Shown: in pieces, positions 3,587 to 63,527 of the stretch | Layout: every line of letters starts with the position of its first letter | Position numbering within the stretch: the stretch's first letter is position 1 | Source of the DNA: an uncultured Gammaproteobacteria bacterium | GTDB taxonomy: Bacteria > Patescibacteriota > Microgenomatia > CAZETR01 > Amesbacteraceae | Reading direction: 5' to 3' | NCBI GenBank assembly: GCA_964633995.1 | Contig: CAZWKN010000001.1 | Location: 134,527 to 198,526 of the forward strand | DNA length: 64,000 bases | Notes under the pieces: generated by a model | Seen by the model: the letters and a program-made list of their open reading frames with translations, nothing else | What the model was told of the DNA's origin: nothing | Database searches by the model: none | Position numbers and translations under genes: made by a program

Positions 3587-4909
3587 GTGGCTATGGCAGA
3601 ACCACGGGTGCCCCCACATTCGCAAGAAGCTGAAGAATCGGTAATAGGTGGATTGTTGTTGGATCGCGATGCGGTGGTGGCGGTAGTAGAGTTTCTGAGA
3701 CCCGAGCATTTTTATCAGGAGAAACATCAACTTATTTTTGAAGTAATAATTGAGTTGTATCAGGAGCGGGAGCCGATTGATGTGGTGACGGTTGCGGAAA
3801 AATTGAAAAAGAAAAAGGTGTTGACTGAAATTGGTGGGGCTACTTATCTTTCTGACTTGGTGTCGAAAGTACCAACTGCGGCACATGCCCAACATTATGG
3901 TCATCTGGTCCAGGACCACTTTACAAAAAGGCAACTTATTTCTGCGGGTACTGCGATTGTGGACATGGCGTTTGATGCAGGAGGTGACGTAAGACAGATA
4001 TTGGATACGGCTGAAGGAAAAGTTTTTTCATTGGCCCAGCAGCATTTGAAGCAGGTGTTTGTGCCCGTAAAAGATATCCTTGCTGAATCGTTTGACCGAT
4101 TGGATGAGTTACATAAATCAGCGGGTTCGCTTAGAGGAGTACCCACGGGGTTTCCGGATTTGGACGATACATTGGCGGGGATGCAGGATTCTAATTTGCT
4201 TATTTTGGCTGCTAGGCCTGGAGTGGGTAAGACAGCATTGGCATTAAATATTGCCCAGCATGCAGCTTTTGTCCATAAACTGCCGGTGGGATTTTTTTCT
4301 TTGGAAATGAGTCGTGAGGAATTGATGGACAGGTTATTGGTGGCTCAGGCAGAAATTGACGCCTGGAAGATGAAAACTGGTAATTTGTCTGAAGATGAAT
4401 TTTCCAAGTTGTCTGATGCAATGGGAGAATTGTATGAAACACCACTATATATAGACGATACGCCGGGAATTTCGATATTGGAAATGAGGACTAAAGCAAG
4501 AAGGTTGCAAGCGGAGCATGGGTTGAAATTGGTTGTAGTTGATTACCTACAATTAGCCAGACCTACAAGAAGTTTGGATAATAGGGTGCAGGAAGTGTCG
4601 GAAATATCTCAAGGGCTTAAAAACCTCGCCCGGGAACTTAAGGTGCCAGTTTTGGCATTGTCCCAGTTGTCTAGGCAAGTGGAGTCACGGGGGATCAAGA
4701 AGCCCCAGTTGGCAGATTTGCGCGAGTCGGGGGCAATTGAACAGGATGCGGACGTGGTGATGTTTTTGTGGAGGGAAAACGACGAGGATTTGGAAAATAT
4801 GAATCTGGACATTGCCAAACACAGAAACGGGGCTTTGAAGACTGTTAAGTTTAGATTCCGAGGGGATAGATATAAATTTTACGGGGTGGAGGGGAAAAGA
4901 AAAGAGTAG
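3587..4909 (+). CDS. dnaB: Replicative DNA helicase DnaB
   Basis: 440 aa; HSQEAEESVIGGLLLD N-terminal domain; Walker A ARPGVGKTALALN; RecA-like C-terminal domain. Confidence 0.95.
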   Translation: MAMAEPRVPPHSQEAEESVIGGLLLDRDAVVAVVEFLRPEHFYQEKHQLIFEVIIELYQEREPIDVVTVAEKLKKKKVLTEIGGATYLSDLVSKVPTAAHAQHYGHLVQDHFTKRQLISAGTAIVDMAFDAGGDVRQILDTAEGKVFSLAQQHLKQVFVPVKDILAESFDRLDELHKSAGSLRGVPTGFPDLDDTLAGMQDSNLLILAARPGVGKTALALNIAQHAAFVHKLPVGFFSLEMSREELMDRLLVAQAEIDAWKMKTGNLSEDEFSKLSDAMGELYETPLYIDDTPGISILEMRTKARRLQAEHGLKLVVVDYLQLARPTRSLDNRVQEVSEISQGLKNLARELKVPVLALSQLSRQVESRGIKKPQLADLRESGAIEQDADVVMFLWRENDEDLENMNLDIAKHRNGALKTVKFRFRGDRYKFYGVEGKRKE

Positions 4910-4925
4910 TTTACTGTATTCAGCG

Positions 4926-4965
4926 GAGATCGTCACGGCCGATGTACATCTGGGTTTGCGATGAC
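4926..4965. repeat. Degenerate copy of the nested-hairpin repeat (GAGATCGYCACGGCCG...GCGATGAC)
   Basis: Aligns with 5025-5062 and in inverse orientation with 28463-28503. Confidence 0.5.
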
Positions 4966-4990
4966 ATATTAATAAAACCTCACCCTCGTT

Positions 4991-5014
4991 CCCTCTCCTG
5001 GATTCAGGAGAGGG
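4991..5014 (-). terminator. Hairpin CCCTCTCCTG-GATTC-AGGAGAGGG followed on the minus strand by a T-rich run; probable terminator downstream of tRNA-Leu(CAA); also sits at the 3-prime side of dnaB
   Basis: Perfect 9-bp stem; minus-strand reading is followed by GGTTTTATTAATAT; homologous hairpin CCCTTCTCCACAATTGTGGAGAAGGG at 28561-28586. Confidence 0.55.
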
Positions 5015-5024
5015 AGGCTTTGTA

Positions 5025-5062
5025 GAGATCGCCACGGCCGCCAAAGGCGGCCTCGCGATGAC
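5025..5062 (-). repeat. Nested-hairpin repeat element (outer stem GTCATCGC/GCGATC, inner 7-bp GC stem GGCCGCC-TTT-GGCGGCC) immediately 3-prime of tRNA-Leu(CAA)
   Basis: Read directly from the sequence; second copy at 28463-28503 carries compensatory inner-stem changes (CCCCGCC-AAG-GCGGGG). Confidence 0.6.
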
Positions 5063-5069
5063 ACTGAAG

Positions 5070-5154
5070 TGCCGAAGGAGGGAGTCGAACCCTCACGGGC
5101 GTTTAGCCCACACGATTTTGAGTCGTGCGTGTATGCCATTTCACCACTCCGGCG
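5070..5154 (-). tRNA. tRNA-Leu (anticodon CAA), type II long variable arm
   Basis: Manual fold: acceptor GCCGGAG/CUUCGGC, anticodon loop CUCAAAA, long variable arm, T-loop GGTTCGACTCC. The ORF track shows antisense garbage here. Confidence 0.85.
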
Positions 5155-5277: not shown

Positions 5278-5880
5278 ATGTGGGCAATTTCTAAAATTTG
5301 GGACGTGCTAGCCTTTTTTGTTTTTGGTTTTTGGGCATGGAAGATGATGCGATTGGATTATGACGAAGAGAAAATTATTACGATGACTATAATTTTGGGC
5401 GTGTGCGGTTTTTTTGGGGGTGTGGGATTGCAGTTGGTGGGATTGTATTGGTGGTGCAAGCGAGTCAAATGGGATTTTTGGGAGTGGTTGGATGCGCTAG
5501 GTCCATTGTTACTTGTAATGTCTGGATTTTTAGGAGTAACTTTTGGGTCAAAAAAAATGGTATGGGGGATATTGGGGATTGTGGGGTTTGGGTGTGTTAA
5601 TTGGATATCGAAAAGATATCGAAAATTTGGTTGGTATAAAAGTGGAAAACCCGGATTTGTAGGGATTGTTTCTATAATGCTATGGAGTTTGTTCGAAATT
5701 GTGGTTGCAACTTTGGTTAGGGGTGGGATATACTTGTGGGGCTTGTCCGTACAGCAATGGGAATGTGTGGTTTTGCTGTCGGTGGGAGCTATGATGTTGT
5801 ACCTGAGGGCAGGACTGGATGTTAGTTATACGTTTAAAAGTTTATGGCGCAAAAAAAGACCAAAATTGATTCCCAAGTAA
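5278..5880 (+). CDS. Hypothetical Trp-rich polytopic membrane protein
   Basis: 200 aa, 5-6 predicted TM helices, basic C-terminus; no diagnostic motif. Confidence 0.45.
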   Translation: MWAISKIWDVLAFFVFGFWAWKMMRLDYDEEKIITMTIILGVCGFFGGVGLQLVGLYWWCKRVKWDFWEWLDALGPLLLVMSGFLGVTFGSKKMVWGILGIVGFGCVNWISKRYRKFGWYKSGKPGFVGIVSIMLWSLFEIVVATLVRGGIYLWGLSVQQWECVVLLSVGAMMLYLRAGLDVSYTFKSLWRKKRPKLIPK

Positions 5881-11760: not shown

Positions 11761-12104
11761 AATTTTGAAATGTTATTAGAAGCACGGGCGTCCACTGTAA
11801 AGAAACCGGTTGTTACGACTGTTAATGGGGTCAGGCCTGATGGTAAGCCTGCTTCCCATTCAATAACTACATCAAAAAAACGAGTTGAACAAGAGAAGAA
11901 GAAACCTGCGAAACAACCGACTTTGTTTCCAGGGTAGTTTTCACAAGGGGAGAGGAGTAGTTTTCACGGGTTCAACCTCAATTTTAGCTTTGAATGATAT
12001 AGTTTGATGGGGTTAGAGGAAATATTATAGGTCATAATCTTATCACCGATTGTGGATAACTGCTAAGAAGACAACTTCGGAATGCGCCGGTAGGGGTGGG
12101 GTGA

Positions 12105-12173
12105 GAGATTGAGGTGTTAAGACATTGAGTAATTAAGAGATTAAGAGATTGAGTGATTAAGTGGTTAAGTGGG
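12105..12173. repeat. GAGATTGAG/TTAAGTGG decamer-type tandem repeats in the recombinase upstream region
   Basis: gagagattgaggtgttaagacattgagtaattaagagattaagagattgagtgattaagtggttaagtgg; related gagagattgagagattgagagac sits inside hisS (905-927). Confidence 0.5.
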
Positions 12174-14244: not shown

Positions 14245-15258
14245 GTGAAAGTAGCAGTTCTTTTTAATTCACCAGGACCTTCTTCGTCCTTGCAAATTGC
14301 TGAGTCTGAAGATGATACGCGCCAGTCCGCGAGTGAAGTTTGTGATGCTTTGAAAGAATTGGGACATGCGGCGACCTTGGTGGAAGTTGGTGAAAAAGAC
14401 ATCGAAAAAATATCACTGATAAGGGCAGATTTTATTTTTAATTTAGTTGAATGGAGTGGACGCGAGACGACTTTGGGGGTAAGGGTGGTAAATATGTTAG
14501 AAAGAATGGGAATTGCTTTTTCCGGGTCGGGTTCTTTTGGATACGAAGTTTCTTGTAATAAATTTTTAATGAAAAAAGCTTTGGTGCGAAATAAAATTCC
14601 GACAGCCAAGTATCAAGTACTAAGTGCTAAGGATGAAGTGCTAAGGGATGATTTTGTTTTTCCTGTAATTGTAAAACCAGTTGCTGAACATTGTGGAATT
14701 GGGATATCTCAGGATAGTGTTTGTAAAAATATCCAAGAAACAAGGAACAAGATACAAATTTTGTTTGAAACGTTTGGACAGCCAGTGTTGGTCGAAGAAT
14801 TCATTGAAGGGAGAGAGTTGCATGTGACGGTATTGGAAAAAAATGGAAAGCCTTGGGTATTGCCGCCAGCGGAGGTGATTTTCAAGAAAAAAAAAGATTA
14901 TTTTCCGATTCTTTCATACGACGCTAAATGGAAAACAAATACATGGGAGTGGAAAATGTCTGAGATGGTTGATGCCAAATTGGACGCCTCCTTGTTAAAA
15001 ACTGTGACTAGTATCTCGACTAAAGCATTTACCAAGTTGGGTGGAGCTGATTATACGAGATTGGATTTTAGGGTTAATAAAAAAGGAGTTTATGTGTTGG
15101 AAATAAATAATAATCCCGGGATTGGATTTGACTTGGAAAGTGGTATTGGAAGATCGGCGCGGAGAGTGGGTTTTGATAAGTATTCTAAATTGATAGATCA
15201 CATTGTAAAAAACGCAGTTGTTAGATGGTCTAAAAGATATGACGCCTTTGCATTTTGA
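14245..15258 (+). CDS. ATP-grasp enzyme, D-alanine--D-alanine ligase-like (paralogue 1)
   Basis: 337 aa; N-terminal Rossmann-like VAVLFNSPG...; central FPVIVKPVAEHCGIGIS; EEFIEGRELHVTVL; C-terminal YVLEINNNPG (ATP-grasp). Confidence 0.65.
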   Translation: MKVAVLFNSPGPSSSLQIAESEDDTRQSASEVCDALKELGHAATLVEVGEKDIEKISLIRADFIFNLVEWSGRETTLGVRVVNMLERMGIAFSGSGSFGYEVSCNKFLMKKALVRNKIPTAKYQVLSAKDEVLRDDFVFPVIVKPVAEHCGIGISQDSVCKNIQETRNKIQILFETFGQPVLVEEFIEGRELHVTVLEKNGKPWVLPPAEVIFKKKKDYFPILSYDAKWKTNTWEWKMSEMVDAKLDASLLKTVTSISTKAFTKLGGADYTRLDFRVNKKGVYVLEINNNPGIGFDLESGIGRSARRVGFDKYSKLIDHIVKNAVVRWSKRYDAFAF

Positions 15259-16288
15259 TTATCCAGTGAGTGTGGCGATCTTGTATTACGGAGATGGTTC
15301 TTCTAAGGACGACGTAGATACCGTCGAGACTTTGGCCAACTTGACGGAGGCTTTGGAAAAAAGAGGGCATGTGGTTAGAAGCATGAAAGTTAATAAAAAA
15401 AATTGGCGGAAAGCTGTTCGAATACCCGGTGAAATCGTGTTTAATTTGGTTGAAGATCCTGGATGGATTTTGTACAACAAGGTTGGTGAGTTGTTGGAAA
15501 GACTGGGAAGGGCTCAAGTGGGCCAAAATATGAAGACTTTGAAATATGGATGCAAGAAGGCGTGGATGAAGAGGAGGATGAGAAGGCTGGGAATTTCGAC
15601 TCCAGAATTTCGGATATTTAACAGGAGGAGTAGGGTGACCCAGGTTCGTGGATTGGAGTATCCCTTGTTTGTAAAGCCTTCAGGCCAACATGCGGGGATA
15701 GGGATATCGCAGGATTCAGTGGTGATCGATGAAGACGAGCTTTCTGAAAGGGTGAAATACTTGTTTAAGTATTTCCCAGGAGAAGTGATAGCTGAGCAAT
15801 TCGTCGACGGTAGAGAAATTCATGTTACTGTTTTAGGTAACGGTAAGCATTTGGTGACACTTCCCTATGCCGAGTTGGTGTTTGTAGGCGAGTACGCCGA
15901 TAATTGGGAAATATATACATTTGAGGCCAAGTGGAATGATGAGTCATGGGAATATTGGAGTGTGCCGGTTATTAGTCCAATTAAAATGACTAAACAATTG
16001 GGGAATAGGATCGAGAAACTGGTCAAAAAAGCGTTTAGGGCTTTTTCGTGTAAAGACATCGCCAGGTTTGATTTGAGAGTAGATAAAAATGACAAGCCAT
16101 ATATCGTCGACATAAACATTAATCCCAGTCTGGCAAAACAGGAAACCGATGCGACCTGGAAGTCTGCCGTAGCTTTAGAGTGGTCTTATGAAGATTTGGT
16201 CGAGACAATAGTGGGGATTACTTACAAAAGATATTACGGAAAGATGCCGGAACGAATTAGGGATAGGCAACTTTTACTAACGGCATAG
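15239..16288 (+). CDS. ATP-grasp enzyme, D-alanine--D-alanine ligase-like (paralogue 2, tandem)
   Basis: Start MTPLHFDYPVSVAILYYGDG; same motif order as paralogue 1: FVKPSGQHAGIGIS, EQFVDGREIHVTVL, YIVDININPS. Confidence 0.65.
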   Translation: MTPLHFDYPVSVAILYYGDGSSKDDVDTVETLANLTEALEKRGHVVRSMKVNKKNWRKAVRIPGEIVFNLVEDPGWILYNKVGELLERLGRAQVGQNMKTLKYGCKKAWMKRRMRRLGISTPEFRIFNRRSRVTQVRGLEYPLFVKPSGQHAGIGISQDSVVIDEDELSERVKYLFKYFPGEVIAEQFVDGREIHVTVLGNGKHLVTLPYAELVFVGEYADNWEIYTFEAKWNDESWEYWSVPVISPIKMTKQLGNRIEKLVKKAFRAFSCKDIARFDLRVDKNDKPYIVDININPSLAKQETDATWKSAVALEWSYEDLVETIVGITYKRYYGKMPERIRDRQLLLTA

Positions 16289-27887: not shown

Positions 27888-28400
27888 ATGTTTAATATTA
27901 AAAAGGGTTTTACGTTGATTGAACTTTTGGTAGTAATTGGTTTGTTGGCTGTTATTTCCGCCGGAGTTGTTGCGCTCATCAACCCACAGGATAAATTGAA
28001 TGCCGGTAATGATGCCGGAGTTCAGAATTCTATTGGTGAAATTGGGACAGCTGCTCAAGCATATGCTGCTACTCATAGTGGAAATTATCCCGGTTTGGAT
28101 TCCGATACGGTATTGGTTACGACAGGAGATTTGACTGTATGGCCAACTTCTCCAAACGGAACCATTACTGATGGATCTACGTGCGCAGTTTCCGGAGGAG
28201 CCGGATGTACTAGGTATACAGTTTATGCGCCAGTGAAATCGAAGAAGTACGCTTCTTCGTTGGGAGTTGCGACTGGAACTGGAGGCACTGTAGCTGCTTG
28301 TGGAGCTGCTAATGCTTACTGGTTGTGGACATCAAATACTGGTAAGGCATGTTTGTATTGTGGAGCGCCAGTTGCTGATGGGACAATGAGTTGTCCGTGA
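27888..28400 (+). CDS. Type IV (major) pilin
   Basis: MFNIKKGFTLIELLVVIGLLAVISAGVVALI: class III signal with G-F cleavage site and Glu+5; C-terminal Cys pairs. Confidence 0.8.
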   Translation: MFNIKKGFTLIELLVVIGLLAVISAGVVALINPQDKLNAGNDAGVQNSIGEIGTAAQAYAATHSGNYPGLDSDTVLVTTGDLTVWPTSPNGTITDGSTCAVSGGAGCTRYTVYAPVKSKKYASSLGVATGTGGTVAACGAANAYWLWTSNTGKACLYCGAPVADGTMSCP

Positions 28401-28462
28401 TTGGTTTAGTAAGTTTTGTTACACCGGCCGAAAGGCCGGTGTTTGGGTTTAGGGAGATACAT

Positions 28463-28503
28463 GTCATCGCGAACCCCGCCAAGGCGGGGTGTGGCGATCT
28501 GAC
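28463..28503 (+). terminator. Nested-hairpin repeat element downstream of the major pilin gene (probable terminator/processing hairpin)
   Basis: GTCATCGC-GAA-CCCCGCC-AAG-GCGGGG-TGTG-GCGATCTGAC; inverse-orientation homologue of 5025-5062 with a compensatory inner stem. Confidence 0.55.
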
Positions 28504-28560
28504 GAGATTGCTTCCATGTGCCCGCAACGACACTCCCCTTCCCTTTCCACCTCACCCCTG

Positions 28561-28586
28561 CCCTTCTCCACAATTGTGGAGAAGGG
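28561..28586 (+). repeat. Hairpin CCCTTCTCCACAATTGTGGAGAAGGG, partner of the nested-hairpin element
   Basis: Homologous to 4991-5014 (CCCTCTCCTGGATTCAGGAGAGGG); a C-rich spacer precedes it. Confidence 0.5.
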
Positions 28587-28609
28587 GGTGTTGCGGTTAG
28601 AATGGAGGC

Positions 28610-29338
28610 ATGGAAGTTGTGTTTTTTGTGTTGGGGGCGGTGATGGGGAGTGTGGCGAATGCCATTATTGATAGACTTCCTCGAAATGAAGCATGGAGTA
28701 AGGGTAGGTCTCATTGTGATAAGTGTAATCATTCGTTGGGGTTATTTGACTTGATACCATTAATTTCCTTTTTAACCCTTGCCGGTAAATGTAGGTATTG
28801 TAAAAAACAGATACCAAAGCGTAATTTTGTCGTGGAATTGTTTTTGGGTTTGGGCTTTTTGGTGATAAGTCGGATAGGACACATGGGACTGATAGGACAA
28901 ATACTATTGATGGGGATGTTGTGGGTGACGACGATAATCGCGGTTATGGATTGGGAAACTAAACTAGTATCCGAATTATTGGTGTTTGTGTGGTGGATAC
29001 TAGTAGTTTTTCAGTTAAACAGTTTTTCAGTTCTTCAGTTGACGGGATTAATTGCTGGTGTTGGTGTAATTGGGGGAATATGGGCGGTGACGCGTGGGAG
29101 AGCGATGGGGTTTGGGGACGTAGAAATAGTTGCTGTTATGGGATGGTGGTTGGGGTGGCCAAAGATTGGGGTGGCTTTGTGGATGGCGTTTGTAGTAGGG
29201 GCAATATTTGGCATTTATCATTTGACATTTAGACAGTTGAAATTGAAAAGTGAGATTGCGTTTGGGCCGTTTTTGATTTTGGGGACATGGGTAGCTTATT
29301 TTGGAGGAGAGACTATAATTAAATTACTAAATTTTTAA
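28610..29338 (+). CDS. pilD: Prepilin peptidase PilD (A24 family)
   Basis: 242 aa; N-terminal CDKC...CRYC zinc-binding pairs, 6-7 TM helices, catalytic Asp regions. Confidence 0.85.
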   Translation: MEVVFFVLGAVMGSVANAIIDRLPRNEAWSKGRSHCDKCNHSLGLFDLIPLISFLTLAGKCRYCKKQIPKRNFVVELFLGLGFLVISRIGHMGLIGQILLMGMLWVTTIIAVMDWETKLVSELLVFVWWILVVFQLNSFSVLQLTGLIAGVGVIGGIWAVTRGRAMGFGDVEIVAVMGWWLGWPKIGVALWMAFVVGAIFGIYHLTFRQLKLKSEIAFGPFLILGTWVAYFGGETIIKLLNF

Positions 29339-53284: not shown

Positions 53285-53533
53285 ATGCAGGATGTAAATG
53301 AAATGGTGGGGGTAGATGTGAGTTTTTGGGGAAGTAGGGTGGTTCCTACTAGATTTGTATGGGATGGCCGTAGACATGATGTAAAAAGAATAAATATGAA
53401 ATTTGAGAGAAAAAACGCCGGAAGAAGGTATTTGTGTTTTGCGTTAGACACGGGAAGTATGTTGGTAGAGCTTGCTATGGATCGGGAAGATTTGAGCTGG
53501 AGGGTCACACGGTGCGCACCATCTTACACGTAG
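53285..53533 (+). CDS. Small hypothetical protein immediately upstream of, and overlapping, dinB
   Basis: 82 aa from MQDVNEMVGVDVSFWGS...; overlaps the dinB start by 22 nt in another frame. Confidence 0.3.
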   Translation: MQDVNEMVGVDVSFWGSRVVPTRFVWDGRRHDVKRINMKFERKNAGRRYLCFALDTGSMLVELAMDREDLSWRVTRCAPSYT

Positions 53534-54720
53534 ACATGAATTCATATTTTGCGACGGCGGAGCAGCAGGCGAACCCTTTTTTGAGGGGGAAACCAATAGG
53601 GGTGATAAAAGCTTTGAACAGGGGGTGCATAATCGCAGCTTCAGTGGAGGCGAAAAAATTTGGAGTGAAAACCGGCATGAATGTGTGGGATGCCAAGAAG
53701 AAATGCCCGCATATTATTTTGGTACCGTCGGATATGGACAAATATTTTTCTATTACTTGCGGGATGGTGGAAATTTTGAAATCCTACTCCCCTGTCCTGG
53801 AAATTTTTTCAATAGATGAATGTTTTTTAGATGTGACGCAGACAAAAGGTTTATATTGTGGAGGTGCGTGGGAAATGGCTTTGGAGATAAAGAAACGGAT
53901 TAGGGAAGAGTTGGGAGAGTGGATGAAATGTTCGGTGGGGATTGGCTTTTCCAAAATTGTGGCTAAGTTGGCATCTGAAATGCACAAGCCTGACGGATTA
54001 ACATGGTTGACGGTTGATAACTATCTTGAAAAGACTGAAAGTGTAGAAGTTTCTGAGGTGTGTGGAATTGGGTTTTCCCGGACGGCGTATTTAAGAACCA
54101 GGGGGGCTTTTACGTTGGGACAAGCAAGAAGATTGGAGTTGCCTGAGGAGATAAAAGATTTGGTTTTTTTGAGAAACGATGACGATTTGGTAACTGTTTC
54201 GGAGTTGGAAGCTGCTAAGAGTGTGTCGAGAACATACACCACATATAAAACTCTAAACTCTAAATTCGAAATTCTAAAATTGGTGAGAAATTTGGTGGAA
54301 GAAGTGTGTGCCAAATTAAGAGAAATGGAAATGGTGGGGAGAACTTTTATTTTAAGTTTATCAGGTAACAGTTGCCAGTCCTGCCTGCCGGCAGGCAGGT
54401 TTTCAGTTAGGAAAACGATAAATACACCGACAGACGATCCCCTTCTTATTTATGATTTGTTCGTTAGGGAATATGAAAGAAATACAGTAACAGAAGTTAG
54501 GCAAGCGGGGGTGTGGGTGACAAATTTAATGGACAATGGCCAATTGACAATTGACAGGTCGAGAACAAGTTTGTTGGGGTCGGTAGATAAGGTCAATCAA
54601 AAATTTGGATTGTTTACGTTGTATCCGGCTAGTTTGTTGGGAAATGTTTTGATCAGACCTGAAGTGACTGGTTTTTTGGGAGATAAGTGGTATAGACTAG
54701 GTGGGCCGAAGAGGACTTGA
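53512..54720 (+). CDS. dinB: DNA polymerase IV (Y-family)
   Basis: GTG start, VRTILHVDMNSYFATAEQQ (catalytic Asp/Glu), SIDECFLDVT; the C-terminal little-finger region holds three short repeat insertions; the last 18 nt overlap tRNA-Leu(CAG). Confidence 0.8.
   Translation: MRTILHVDMNSYFATAEQQANPFLRGKPIGVIKALNRGCIIAASVEAKKFGVKTGMNVWDAKKKCPHIILVPSDMDKYFSITCGMVEILKSYSPVLEIFSIDECFLDVTQTKGLYCGGAWEMALEIKKRIREELGEWMKCSVGIGFSKIVAKLASEMHKPDGLTWLTVDNYLEKTESVEVSEVCGIGFSRTAYLRTRGAFTLGQARRLELPEEIKDLVFLRNDDDLVTVSELEAAKSVSRTYTTYKTLNSKFEILKLVRNLVEEVCAKLREMEMVGRTFILSLSGNSCQSCLPAGRFSVRKTINTPTDDPLLIYDLFVREYERNTVTEVRQAGVWVTNLMDNGQLTIDRSRTSLLGSVDKVNQKFGLFTLYPASLLGNVLIRPEVTGFLGDKWYRLGGPKRT
54380..54399. repeat. 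Perfect 20-nt palindrome CCTGCCTGCCGGCAGGCAGG inside dinB (in frame: SCQSCLPAGRF)
   Basis: Identical 20-mer at 63092-63111 next to the GIY-YIG gene. Confidence 0.7.
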
Positions 54721-58151: not shown

Positions 58152-58258
58152 GCGGGTATAATTAATTATCGGGGTGTATCGGAAGGACTTGGGGCCCCTG
58201 CCCCAAAACTTCCTCTATCTCTCGCAAAGCTCGTGATAATTCATCGGCTTGAAAATTT
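58152..58258 (+). promoter_or_regulatory. Structured tRNA-leader repeat (copy C) upstream of tRNA-Pro
   Basis: gcgggtata...tcggaaggacttggggcccctgccccaaaacttcctctatctctcgc; same family as 63003-63069 and 63390-63456. Confidence 0.55.
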
Positions 58259-62991: not shown

Positions 62992-63002
62992 TAAGGGGGT
63001 TC

Positions 63003-63069
63003 GCGGGTATATCAGAAAGACTTGGAACTGATGTTCCAAAATTTCTTCTATACTCCGCTCGCCACGCTC
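63003..63069 (+). promoter_or_regulatory. Structured tRNA-leader repeat (copy A) preceding the truncated tRNA-Gly copy
   Basis: gcgggtatatcagaaagacttggaactgatgttccaaaatttcttctatactccgctcgc; inner and outer stems differ from copies B and C by compensatory substitutions. Confidence 0.55.
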
Positions 63070-63091
63070 GCGGGTATAGCTCAATGGTAGA
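63070..63091 (+). pseudogene. Truncated tRNA-Gly 5-prime fragment (nt 1-22 through the D-arm)
   Basis: gcgggtatagctcaatggtaga is identical to the first 22 nt of the intact tRNA-Gly at 63457, then diverges into the palindrome CCTGCCTGCCGGCAGGCAGG. Confidence 0.7.
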
Positions 63092-63111
63092 CCTGCCTGC
63101 CGGCAGGCAGG
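63092..63111. repeat. Perfect 20-nt palindrome CCTGCCTGCCGGCAGGCAGG at the junction of the truncated tRNA-Gly copy and the GIY-YIG gene
   Basis: Identical to 54380-54399 within dinB. Confidence 0.7.
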
Positions 63112-63123
63112 GCACAGTTTTCC

Positions 63124-63369
63124 ATGTATTTTGTGTACATAATTCAAAGCAGTTCAACTAAAAAGTTTTATACTGGAATTACTAACAACATTGACAGGCG
63201 GCTTGAAGAGCACAATCGGATTAATTCTAATTCAGTGGTATCTCGTGGGTTGACTGATTTCGAGTTGGTATATACAGAAGAAGTTTGTGATAGAATTTCA
63301 GCACGAAAACTCGAAAAATACTTAAAATCAGGAGCAGGTAGAGAGTTTCGAGATGAAATAGTAAAATGA
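63124..63369 (+). CDS. GIY-YIG nuclease-domain protein (free-standing homing-endonuclease-like)
   Basis: 81 aa; MYFVYIIQSSSTKKFYTGITNNIDRRLEEHN matches the GIY-(10-11)-YIG ... R ... E ... N catalytic motif order. Confidence 0.75.
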   Translation: MYFVYIIQSSSTKKFYTGITNNIDRRLEEHNRINSNSVVSRGLTDFELVYTEEVCDRISARKLEKYLKSGAGREFRDEIVK

Positions 63370-63389
63370 CGGTGACGCTCGTTTCACTC

Positions 63390-63456
63390 GCGGGTATATC
63401 GGAAGATCTTGGGGCCCCTGCCCCAAAACTTCCTCTATTCCCCGCTCGCTACGTTC
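63390..63456 (+). promoter_or_regulatory. Structured tRNA-leader repeat (copy B) upstream of intact tRNA-Gly
   Basis: gcgggtatatcggaagatcttggggcccctgccccaaaacttcctctattccccgctcgc. Confidence 0.55.
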
Positions 63457-63527
63457 GCGGGTATAGCTCAATGGTAGAGCACTAGTTTTCCAAACTAGGT
63501 ACAGGGGTCCGATTCCCCTTACCCGCT
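63457..63527 (+). tRNA. tRNA-Gly (anticodon UCC)
   Basis: Manual fold: GCGGGUA acceptor, D-arm GCUCAAUGGUAGAGC, anticodon loop UUUCCAA, T-loop GGTCCGATTCC, discriminator U. Confidence 0.85.

Follow-up and report, generated by a model that had tools for sequence, protein, structure and literature searches.

Two families of small hairpin repeats in the dnaB and pilin spacers of a Microgenomates-like genome

Introduction

Short nested hairpins lie downstream of a tRNA-Leu(CAA) gene and of a type IV pilin gene in a 64,000-nt stretch of contig CAZWKN010000001.1 (hereafter, the window), and their position raises the question of whether they are RNA signals of the adjacent genes or repeat DNA that came to rest behind them. 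A first-pass annotation of the window had described a structure-conserved family, similar to repetitive extragenic palindromic (REP) elements and to terminators, that is placed 3' of highly expressed genes. The host is a candidate-phyla-radiation (Microgenomates-like) genome. We conclude that the hairpins are copies of two small non-coding repeats, termed here A and B, which are unrelated to each other and probably entered the host lineage by insertion. The window holds two intact (A1 and A2) and two decayed (A3 and A4) copies of family A, as well as two copies of element B (B1 and B2), located in the dnaB/tRNA-Leu spacer and in the spacer between the pilin gene and pilD (Table 1).

Family A in the window and its structure

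The pattern GTCATCGC-N10-40-CGATCT has three matches in the window (5062..5026 and 4965..4927 on the minus strand, 28463..28500 on the plus strand) vs 0.02 expected from shuffled sequences, and therefore the initial observation of nested-hairpin elements with shared outer arms at both loci is correct apart from small details. One of these details concerns the common 3' arm, which had been given as GCGATCTSAC: its GTGGCGATCT part is indeed shared, whereas the SAC ending is found at the pilin locus only, the tRNA locus having CTA. As described before, the inner stems differ and yet remain perfectly paired (GGCCGCC-TTT-GGCGGCC vs ACCCCGC-CAAG-GCGGGGT). Further matches to GTGGCGATCT or GTCATCGC at 15272, 46749, and 47962 are all within coding sequence, lack a partner arm, and were attributed to chance.

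A covariance model (R1) was built from 17 copies, all of them from other genomes, and was run on the window with filters off. Both intact copies were recovered at E ~1e-7 (A1, 43.5 bits, E 1.5e-7; A2, 41.7 bits, E 3.8e-7). The degenerate third copy that had been placed at 4926-4965 is A3, which matches the pattern and scores 15.7 bits (E 0.21); A4 (14.8 bits, E 0.34) is a fourth, decayed copy that the first-pass annotation missed. Beyond A1-A4, the model returned only noise over the 64-kb window, and in a set of 99 foreign loci plus the window (780 kb) it gave 196 matches at E < 1e-3. In DNA folding, the intact copies form nested hairpins on either strand, with energies between -11.7 and -13.5 kcal/mol and z between -3.2 and -3.8 (A1, -13.5 kcal/mol, z -3.8; A2, -12.4 kcal/mol), and no hairpin was obtained for A3 (z +0.25) or A4.

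Selection on structure, suggested earlier from the differing inner stems, is supported by strong covariation. In the R1 alignment, which was fitted to the model and is thus biased toward structure (raw copy counts agree), 96.3% of pair cells are standard pairs vs 82.1% in shuffles, and 163 cells show double-sided changes vs 52.6 in shuffles. None of 500 shuffles (0/500) reached the observed values, and paired cells amount to at most 68% in slid-control alignments. Of 120 rows, 118 have A-U as the first pair of the foot and all have U-A as the second; at the third position, C-G (78 rows) alternates with U-A (40 rows; other, 1 row). With one position relaxed, the foot occurs as ATCGC/GCGAT in 154 copies, as ATTGC/GCAAT in 132, and in mixed form in 6.

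The layout of family A is TGTC, AT(C/T)GC, GA, a variable hairpin, GTG, GC(G/A)AT, and CTC, that is, a 5' tag, a 5-bp foot stem, an internal loop, a distal stem of 2-8 bp that is unconstrained in sequence, and a 3-nt tail. Only the first base of the tag was free to vary, the GTC being fixed by the search pattern; among the 292 copies, T (244) greatly outnumbers C (35), A (8), and G (5) at this position, and all four window copies start with TGTC. The internal loop consists of GA on the 5' side and GTG on the 3' side, with GAA or GCG in the T variant and an extended form GA-G-GA...GA-C-GTG. The tail CTC is conserved at 97, 86, and 79% in its three positions (C, T, and C, respectively), and the limits of conservation are sharp, lying at T(-1) outside the tag and at CTC(+1..+3).

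The distal hairpin is closed by a triloop in 187 of 284 cases, 118 of these being GNA with a free middle base (GAA, 54; GCA, 33; GTA, 18; GGA, 13). None of the 40 commonest loops is of the complementary TNC type, and only 6 of 51 tetraloops are of the GNRA type. The commonest distal unit is GCGNAGC, a mini-hairpin of the d(GCGAAGC) type; such mini-hairpins are unusually stable according to the DNA-structure literature. The asymmetry of the loops hints, without proving it, that folding takes place in the tag-bearing strand as single-stranded DNA. In the comparison of the window with Rfam, no family other than tRNA passed the gathering score, and no credible match was obtained at either hairpin locus (E <= 10) or on four copy-rich foreign loci (E <= 1).

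Organization of the two spacers

The stop codon of dnaB forms the edge of a 159-nt spacer containing A3-B1-A1, and on the minus strand the order is tRNA, 6 nt, A1, 11 nt, B1, 11 nt, and A3. Thus, the element described as following the tRNA gene directly does so, beginning 6 nt past the tRNA 3' end, with both on the minus strand. A3 retains the tag, foot, and tail (TGTCATCGCAA...GTGACGATCT); its last outer pair is broken and its inner hairpin is lost. An exact-protein look-up gave no match for DnaB or for the open reading frame (ORF) at 5278.

The second spacer belongs to a gene cluster with the order pilB-pilT-pilC-pilin-pilD; the exact-protein look-up of the pilin retrieved an identical contig, L119, and no other match. 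A2, reported to lie 60 nt after the pilin gene, starts 62 nt past its stop codon, with a separate canonical terminator between the two. The decayed copy A4 is separated from A2 by 4 nt, and the two tags face outward as in the typical C/T heterodimer of family A. Two sequences, GTTGCGG and GGCATGGAAG, are complementary to the inner part of A4, and in the predicted RNA fold of 28400-28640 the segment holding them forms with A4 a long stem around B2; GGCATGGAAG spans the Shine-Dalgarno sequence of pilD and its start codon (ATG at 28610). This predicted stem could occlude translation initiation of pilD; the relatives have no structure of this type.

Table 1. Features of the two repeat-bearing spacers and their flanking genes (positions in the window)
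Feature	Position	Strand	Sequence or basis
dnaB (replicative helicase)	3587..4909	+	ORF list; Pfam DnaB_C, E 2.7e-99
A3, decayed family-A copy	4927..4966	-	reads TGTCATCGCAAACCCAGATGTACATCGGCCGTGACGATCT
B1, PIT/TM intrastrand-triplex motif	4978..5014	-	CCCTCTCC-TGAATCCA-GGAGAGGG-AACGA-GGGTGAGG
A1, intact family-A element, C variant	5025..5063	-	TGTC-ATCGC-GA-GGCCGCC-TTT-GGCGGCC-GTG-GCGAT-CTC = TGTCATCGCGAGGCCGCCTTTGGCGGCCGTGGCGATCTC
tRNA-Leu(CAA)	5069..5153	-	ARAGORN and Rfam tRNA; convergent with dnaB
Type IV pilin gene	27888..28400	+	ORF; Pfam N_methyl
Intrinsic-terminator-like hairpin of the pilin gene	28421..28450	+	ACACCGGCC-GAAA-GGCCGGTGT, then TTGGGTTT T-run; terminator scan
A2, intact family-A element, C variant	28462..28500	+	TGTC-ATCGC-GA-ACCCCGC-CAAG-GCGGGGT-GTG-GCGAT-CT
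A4, decayed T-variant partner of A2	28505..28532	-	reverse complement TGTC-GTTGC-G...AA-GCAAT-CT
B2, PIT/TM-type motif	28550..28586	-	CCCTTCTCC-ACAATTGT-GGAGAAGGG-CAG-GGGTGAGG
GTTGCGG and GGCATGGAAG, complementary to inner part of A4 (28511-28528)	28590..28616	+	RNA fold of 28400-28640; sequence
pilD (prepilin peptidase)	28610..29338	+	Pfam A24_N_bact and Peptidase_A24

Distribution, dimers, and genomic context of family A

The exact-pattern scan of one genome per species yielded at least 118 loci with at least 133 matches, the chance expectation by our own arithmetic being about 20 matches in 596 Gb. Judging from the record titles of the listed matches, the carriers represent about 18 phyla, including Chloroflexota, Bacillota, Pseudomonadota, Desulfobacterota, Nitrospirota, Nitrospinota, Bacteroidota, and Rhodothermia; Spirochaetota, Zixibacteria, Aminicenantes, Armatimonadota, Fibrobacter, Omnitrophica, Atribacteria, Caldisericum, Deferribacteres, and Marinimicrobia; as well as several Patescibacteria (Curtiss-, Roizman-, and Magasanikii-bacteria). 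Cultivable carriers among them are Halomonas garicola KACC 18117, Thioalkalivibrio sp. ALJ7, and Pelotomaculum propionicicum MGP. Multiple copies per contig are frequent, the 8-kb stretch L081 having 15, and the inner stems form genome-specific subfamilies, e.g., in L081. With hundreds of copies in other genomes and the architecture of a tagged REP, the family is REP-like, as had been supposed.

Copies of family A are preferentially arranged in inverted pairs. Among neighbors separated by 150 nt or less, 88 pairs have their tags outward, 19 have them inward, and 19 are direct; C/T heterodimers account for 93 of the 107 inverted dimers. Target-site duplications at tags-outward dimers are no commoner than expected by chance.

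No transposase was found linked to the copies. Clustering of ORFs from the 118 loci of 8 kb revealed no recurrent family that could represent a partner gene, and no gene for a REP-associated tyrosine transposase (RAYT) or other Y1 enzyme was found in these loci or in the copy-rich L043, L075, and L081; a single-copy gene would seldom lie in samples of this size. The clusters that do surround the copies belong to common housekeeping families (crotonase, luciferase-like oxidoreductase, UvrB, IF-2, and RF-3), and the genes bracketed by clusters of copies were assigned by Pfam to RNase E/G, AlaRS, aspartokinase, hemerythrin, EamA, and ABC. A literature search with nucleotide and peptide strings of family A retrieved only primers and unrelated papers.

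One T/C heterodimer is situated in frame within uvrB of Candidatus Magasanikiibacteriota (L090, JAHFHX010000015.1, positions 5697-5766). It adds 27 residues (...TVIASEMKQSPRGDRHGPSGLAMT...) that are missing from another UvrB. A second insertion, of 40-odd residues, is present farther downstream in the same uvrB.

In Chloroflexota of the Dehalococcoidia / SAR202 group (L003, L005, L031, L040, L055, L059, L064, and others), a longer conserved element surrounds the family-A unit, its flanks reading ...CTCACGCGTACCCAGTT-[A]-CGTTCCC...ACGAGATTGCCG. This arrangement points to a composite repeat specific to the lineage.

Empty sites in relatives and the terminator question

Whether the hairpins are conserved cis-elements was assessed in relatives of both loci. 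For the dnaB locus, 80 metagenome loci (DnaB identity 66-86%, 506 kb) were considered. The tRNA-Leu(CAA) gene is convergent with dnaB in most of them, and no copy of A or B is present in any of the 80; in 8/80 the gap between the dnaB stop codon and the tRNA gene is 5-17 nt vs 159 nt in the window. The four relatives of the pilus operon (PilC identity 63-66%; the nearest named are Candidatus Amesbacteria, Microgenomates) likewise have no copy of A or B. In all three of them that reach the next gene (L333, L335, and L336), the spacer downstream of the pilin gene contains a terminator hairpin followed by a T-run. Since the relatives are devoid of A and B, the blocks of ~150-165 nt in the window are lineage-specific additions. 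Two of the four window copies of A have decayed.

These empty sites bear on an alternative explanation, in which A and B are RNA elements, either Rho-independent terminators or 3' stabilizers, selected downstream of highly expressed genes such as those of tRNA and the major pilin. Both intact A copies are in sense orientation 3' of a tRNA or pilin gene, and the A1 and A2 hairpins are stable as RNA. Moreover, REPs are found mostly downstream of coding regions (Di Nocera et al., PMC3733652), and E. coli REPs are known to stabilize upstream mRNA (cited in PMC6006769). Like Rho-independent terminators, A and B provide a GC-rich hairpin 3' of a gene; unlike them, they are not followed by a T/U tract, and the real terminator-like site is a separate one (28421-28450). 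A terminator consensus scan detected no site at any A or B element, its only hit being that of the pilin gene itself (28421-28442), and a T-rich stretch follows only 22/290 copies of family A. A and B are thus not terminators, because they have no U-tracts and the pilin gene has a terminator of its own, located upstream of A2 and retained in the relatives that have neither A nor B. The terminator-like character ascribed to the family was accordingly not sustained.

The preference for sites 3' of highly expressed genes did not hold up either. The 80 dnaB relatives, most with the convergent tRNA-Leu gene, have no copy, and elsewhere the copies flank housekeeping genes, with one dimer in frame inside uvrB. 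Units usually occur as inverted pairs and, therefore, half of them are antisense. Their loops are GNA triloops rather than the GNRA or UNCG tetraloops, and the PIT/TM motifs, to which B belongs (see below), have neither promoter nor terminator activity (PMC4666352). We consider this RNA-element explanation of A and B improbable.

Element B is a PIT/TM motif

The second hairpin noted at both loci, of the form CCYTCTCC-loop-GGAGARGG, is real, but it is not related to family A as had been assumed; it is the known PIT/TM intrastrand-triplex motif. Both B hairpins (4978-5014 and 28550-28586) carry an asymmetric GGGTGAGG extension, as do the PIT/TM(ECO) elements, which are described as CCCTCTCC(C)-loop-(G)GGAGAGGG-3-5 nt-GGGTGAGG(G) (Hoyne et al. 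2000; Holder et al. 2015, PMC4666352). B1 shares the layout of the 23 E. coli sequences in Table 1 of PMC4666352. In B1, all 8/8 third-strand positions, assigned by hand, are canonical antiparallel G*G-C, A*A-T, or T*A-T triads, and in B2 the triplex register is off by one base pair owing to an additional T-A pair. The predicted folding energies are -12.3 kcal/mol for B1 and -11.7 kcal/mol for B2.

PIT/TM(ECO) has 23 copies in E. coli K-12 and is known from >260 genomes; it is always intergenic, lacks promoter and terminator activity, and has been linked to local instability (PMC4666352). The intergenic location and presence in many genomes are common to B, and at least 120 stretches matching its layout were found in a scan of IMG/VR. 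The window copies differ from PIT/TM(ECO) in having 8-nt loops and arms of 8-9 nt, in the extra T-A pair of B2, and in their host, which belongs to the candidate phyla radiation and not to the enterobacteria or cyanobacteria.

The co-occurrence of A and B admits a further alternative, namely that the two constitute one composite mobile element of the host lineage, a mosaic comparable to BIMEs or NIMEs whose parts moved together. Both repeat-bearing spacers of the window hold both families, and at both loci a decayed A copy follows B after 11-17 nt in the same orientation. However, B lies on the same absolute strand at the two loci and the intact A is flipped between them, and the A-B spacers share no common sequence; only two loci are concerned. 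Elsewhere the families are unlinked: no pair of A and B within 200 nt was found in 859 kb of A loci or in 1.08 Mb of B loci, and a single one was found in viral A loci. On these counts, a general A-B composite element was rejected outside the window, and we regard joint movement in the host lineage as very improbable.

Relation of family A to known REP systems

The closest counterparts of family A are the CGTC-tagged REPs (Di Nocera, De Gregorio, Rocco 2013), which include dRS3 of Neisseria and RPE-4 and RPE-6 of Rickettsia and have no dedicated transposase (PMC3733652). Like family A, they possess an unpaired 5' CGTC tag, often TGTC (CCTC is also allowed), and a stem opening with A-T and then T-A. 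Their short unpaired 3' tail, of consensus CCA, has a counterpart in the conserved 3-nt tail of family A, which reads CTC. They form inverted tags-outward dimers, often heterodimers, with direct dimers being rare, and their in-frame dimers are arranged forward...reverse. They also occur in several phyla, with in-frame copies in repair and replication genes including uvrB, and have no associated transposase. In the CGTC-1 to CGTC-4 families, however, the stem runs uninterrupted for 8-9 bp, the loop has 4-5 nt, and the tail is CCA-like. In family A, by contrast, the 5-bp foot is followed by a conserved GA/GTG internal loop and by a distal hairpin of 2-8 bp, free in sequence and mostly with GNA triloops, and the tail is CTC. 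As it does not conform to the stem/loop definition of the published families, we class family A as a further CGTC-type family and as none of CGTC-1 to -4. It is found in many more phyla than the published CGTC REPs, including Patescibacteria, and its diagnostic peptides VIAS, LAMT, and ARND are not in the list of intragenic REPs of Di Nocera et al. (PMC3733652).

A second comparison is with the GTAG elements (REP, REPIN, and BIME) mobilized by RAYT/TnpA_REP in E. coli, Pseudomonas, and Stenotrophomonas. For these, TnpA_REP requires a single-stranded hairpin, a 5' guide tetranucleotide, an irregularity of the stem (bulge), and cleavage at a CT beside the hairpin, the substrate being single-stranded DNA (PMC8266576). 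Family A resembles them as a short extragenic hairpin whose foot carries a conserved 5' tetranucleotide, whose stem is irregular, and which has a CT beside it; it likewise forms inverted doublets and lacks target-site duplication. The tags differ (GT[AG]G vs TGTC or CGTC). In the GTAG systems the RAYT gene is flanked by REPs; no RAYT/Y1 gene was found beside family-A copies in the sampled loci of 8 kb, in which a single-copy gene would seldom lie. GTAG REP sequences are, furthermore, lineage-specific, in contrast to the termini of family A, which are identical across phyla.

Proposed mechanism and alternatives

We infer that family A takes a single-stranded DNA form and is mobilized by an enzyme. 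The mechanism would most likely be that of REP/REPIN elements and IS200/IS605 ends, a proposal made because the layout of family A parallels the needs of TnpA_REP in GTAG REPs (PMC8266576). The unit would fold as a single-stranded DNA hairpin, e.g., on the lagging-strand template, and a putative trans-acting, single-strand-specific enzyme resembling HUH/Y1 transposases would read the tag, foot, internal loop, and tail, the distal hairpin being required only as a hairpin, whatever its sequence. Copying would involve either single units or C/T heterodimers with outward tags, and it would create no target-site duplication. A and B have probably built up in two tolerant spacers, one at a convergent gene end and the other in the stretch behind a terminator, with old copies decaying there, and any effect on the tRNA or pilin transcripts would be a side effect.

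Several observations weigh against insertion of mobile repeats as the explanation of the window hairpins. No mobilizing enzyme was found in the 118 sampled loci of 8 kb. The preference for single-stranded DNA draws on loop statistics and on the stability of d(GNA) mini-hairpins, and DNA folds computed with ViennaRNA differ little between the strands. The case for mobility is based on presence and absence in fairly distant relatives (DnaB 66-86%), not on strain-level polymorphism. The insertion model does not account for the adjacency of A and B at both window loci, and the families are unlinked elsewhere. A count of orientation relative to genes, which used crude ORF proxies and is too unreliable to be relied on, showed no clear bias. 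Finally, a universal host factor could equally explain the invariant termini.

That last point leads to another alternative, in which family A is a DNA site with a host function, recognized by a conserved cellular protein or machine and kept by selection, not by transposition. Candidates include gyrase or a nucleoid protein, a factor of the primosome or of replication restart, and a recombinase with a target like dRS3 of Neisseria. The termini are invariant across about 18 phyla, and no transposase is linked to copies in the sampled loci. Mini-hairpins of the d(GCGAAGC) type are found at phage origins, which also fits a host site. Likewise, the CGTC REPs have no dedicated transposase (PMC3733652). 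The spread of the family is nevertheless patchy, with 0 copies in 506 kb of the nearest relatives vs 4 in the 64-kb window; decayed copies exist, copies insert into coding sequence, and the genome-specific inner-stem subfamilies (L081) look like intragenomic amplification. We judge a host-function site to be unlikely.

A more far-reaching form of the mobile-repeat explanation is that family A represents the DNA half of a REP/RAYT-like system whose putative single-strand DNA enzyme, either horizontally mobile or universally conserved, is active in ~18 phyla, tiny candidate-phyla-radiation genomes among them. We put this forward tentatively and as doubtful. The recognition site would then consist of the TGTC tag, the AT foot, the GA/GTG loop, and the CTC tail, and the distal hairpin, mostly a d(GNA) mini-hairpin, would only nucleate folding. 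If such a system exists, its enzyme would answer a question open since 2013, namely what moves the CGTC-type REPs.

Provided that the window hairpins are inserted repeat DNA and not regulators, they are better masked than annotated as terminators or small RNAs. The family is, however, unusually widespread: a 40-nt element with identical ends, for which no transposase is known, occurs in very distant bacteria and gives rise to spurious ORFs and in-frame insertions such as that in uvrB. The large set of copies offers a handle for finding the partner enzyme by phylogenetic profiling and for testing whether the elements act as single-stranded DNA. Features that bear on these questions are a foot that covaries, an internal loop that does not change, GNA triloops, pairing of C with T variants in dimers, and the absence of target duplication.

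Other features of the window

The window contains eleven tRNA genes, among them near-identical tRNA-Leu genes in inverted orientation (54700 vs 56706 and 56816). The tRNA-Pro and tRNA-Gly genes have a common upstream leader of ~54 nt (58172-58225, 63392-63445, and 63005-63058), which contains a nested hairpin, GGAAG-ACTTGGGGC-CCCT-GCCCCAAAACTTCC, with a TATAAT-like box just upstream. In the duplicated copy of the leader, the inner stem is TTGGAAC-TGAT-GTTCCAA, which is different but still paired. This duplication covers 91 nt (63001-63091 and 63388-63478) and comprises the tRNA-Gly(TCC) leader and the first 22 nt of the tRNA. Between the 91-nt copies lie a 21-nt palindrome (63091-63111) and an ORF for an 81-aa GIY-YIG nuclease (63124-63369; Pfam E 9.6e-15), and the segment 63001-63478 resembles a small GIY-YIG cassette that has integrated at the 5' portion of a tRNA gene.

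The palindrome at the edge of this cassette is one of two copies of a third small palindromic repeat, CCTGCCTGCCGGCAGGCAGG. The other copy (54380-54400) is in frame in an ORF for a Y-family DNA polymerase (53434-54720, Pfam IMS), where it encodes part of the peptide ...SCQSCLPAGRFS....

GC skew is positive throughout the window (+0.08 to +0.36 per 4 kb) and, being strongly positive, it places the whole window on one replichore. Tandem 8-nt units of the TGAGAGAT/TAAGAGAT type and repeats of the AGTGCTAAGG type are common to distant sites of the window, the short repeats being shared between 901-935 and 12102-12173 and between 2518-2549 and 14602-14647.

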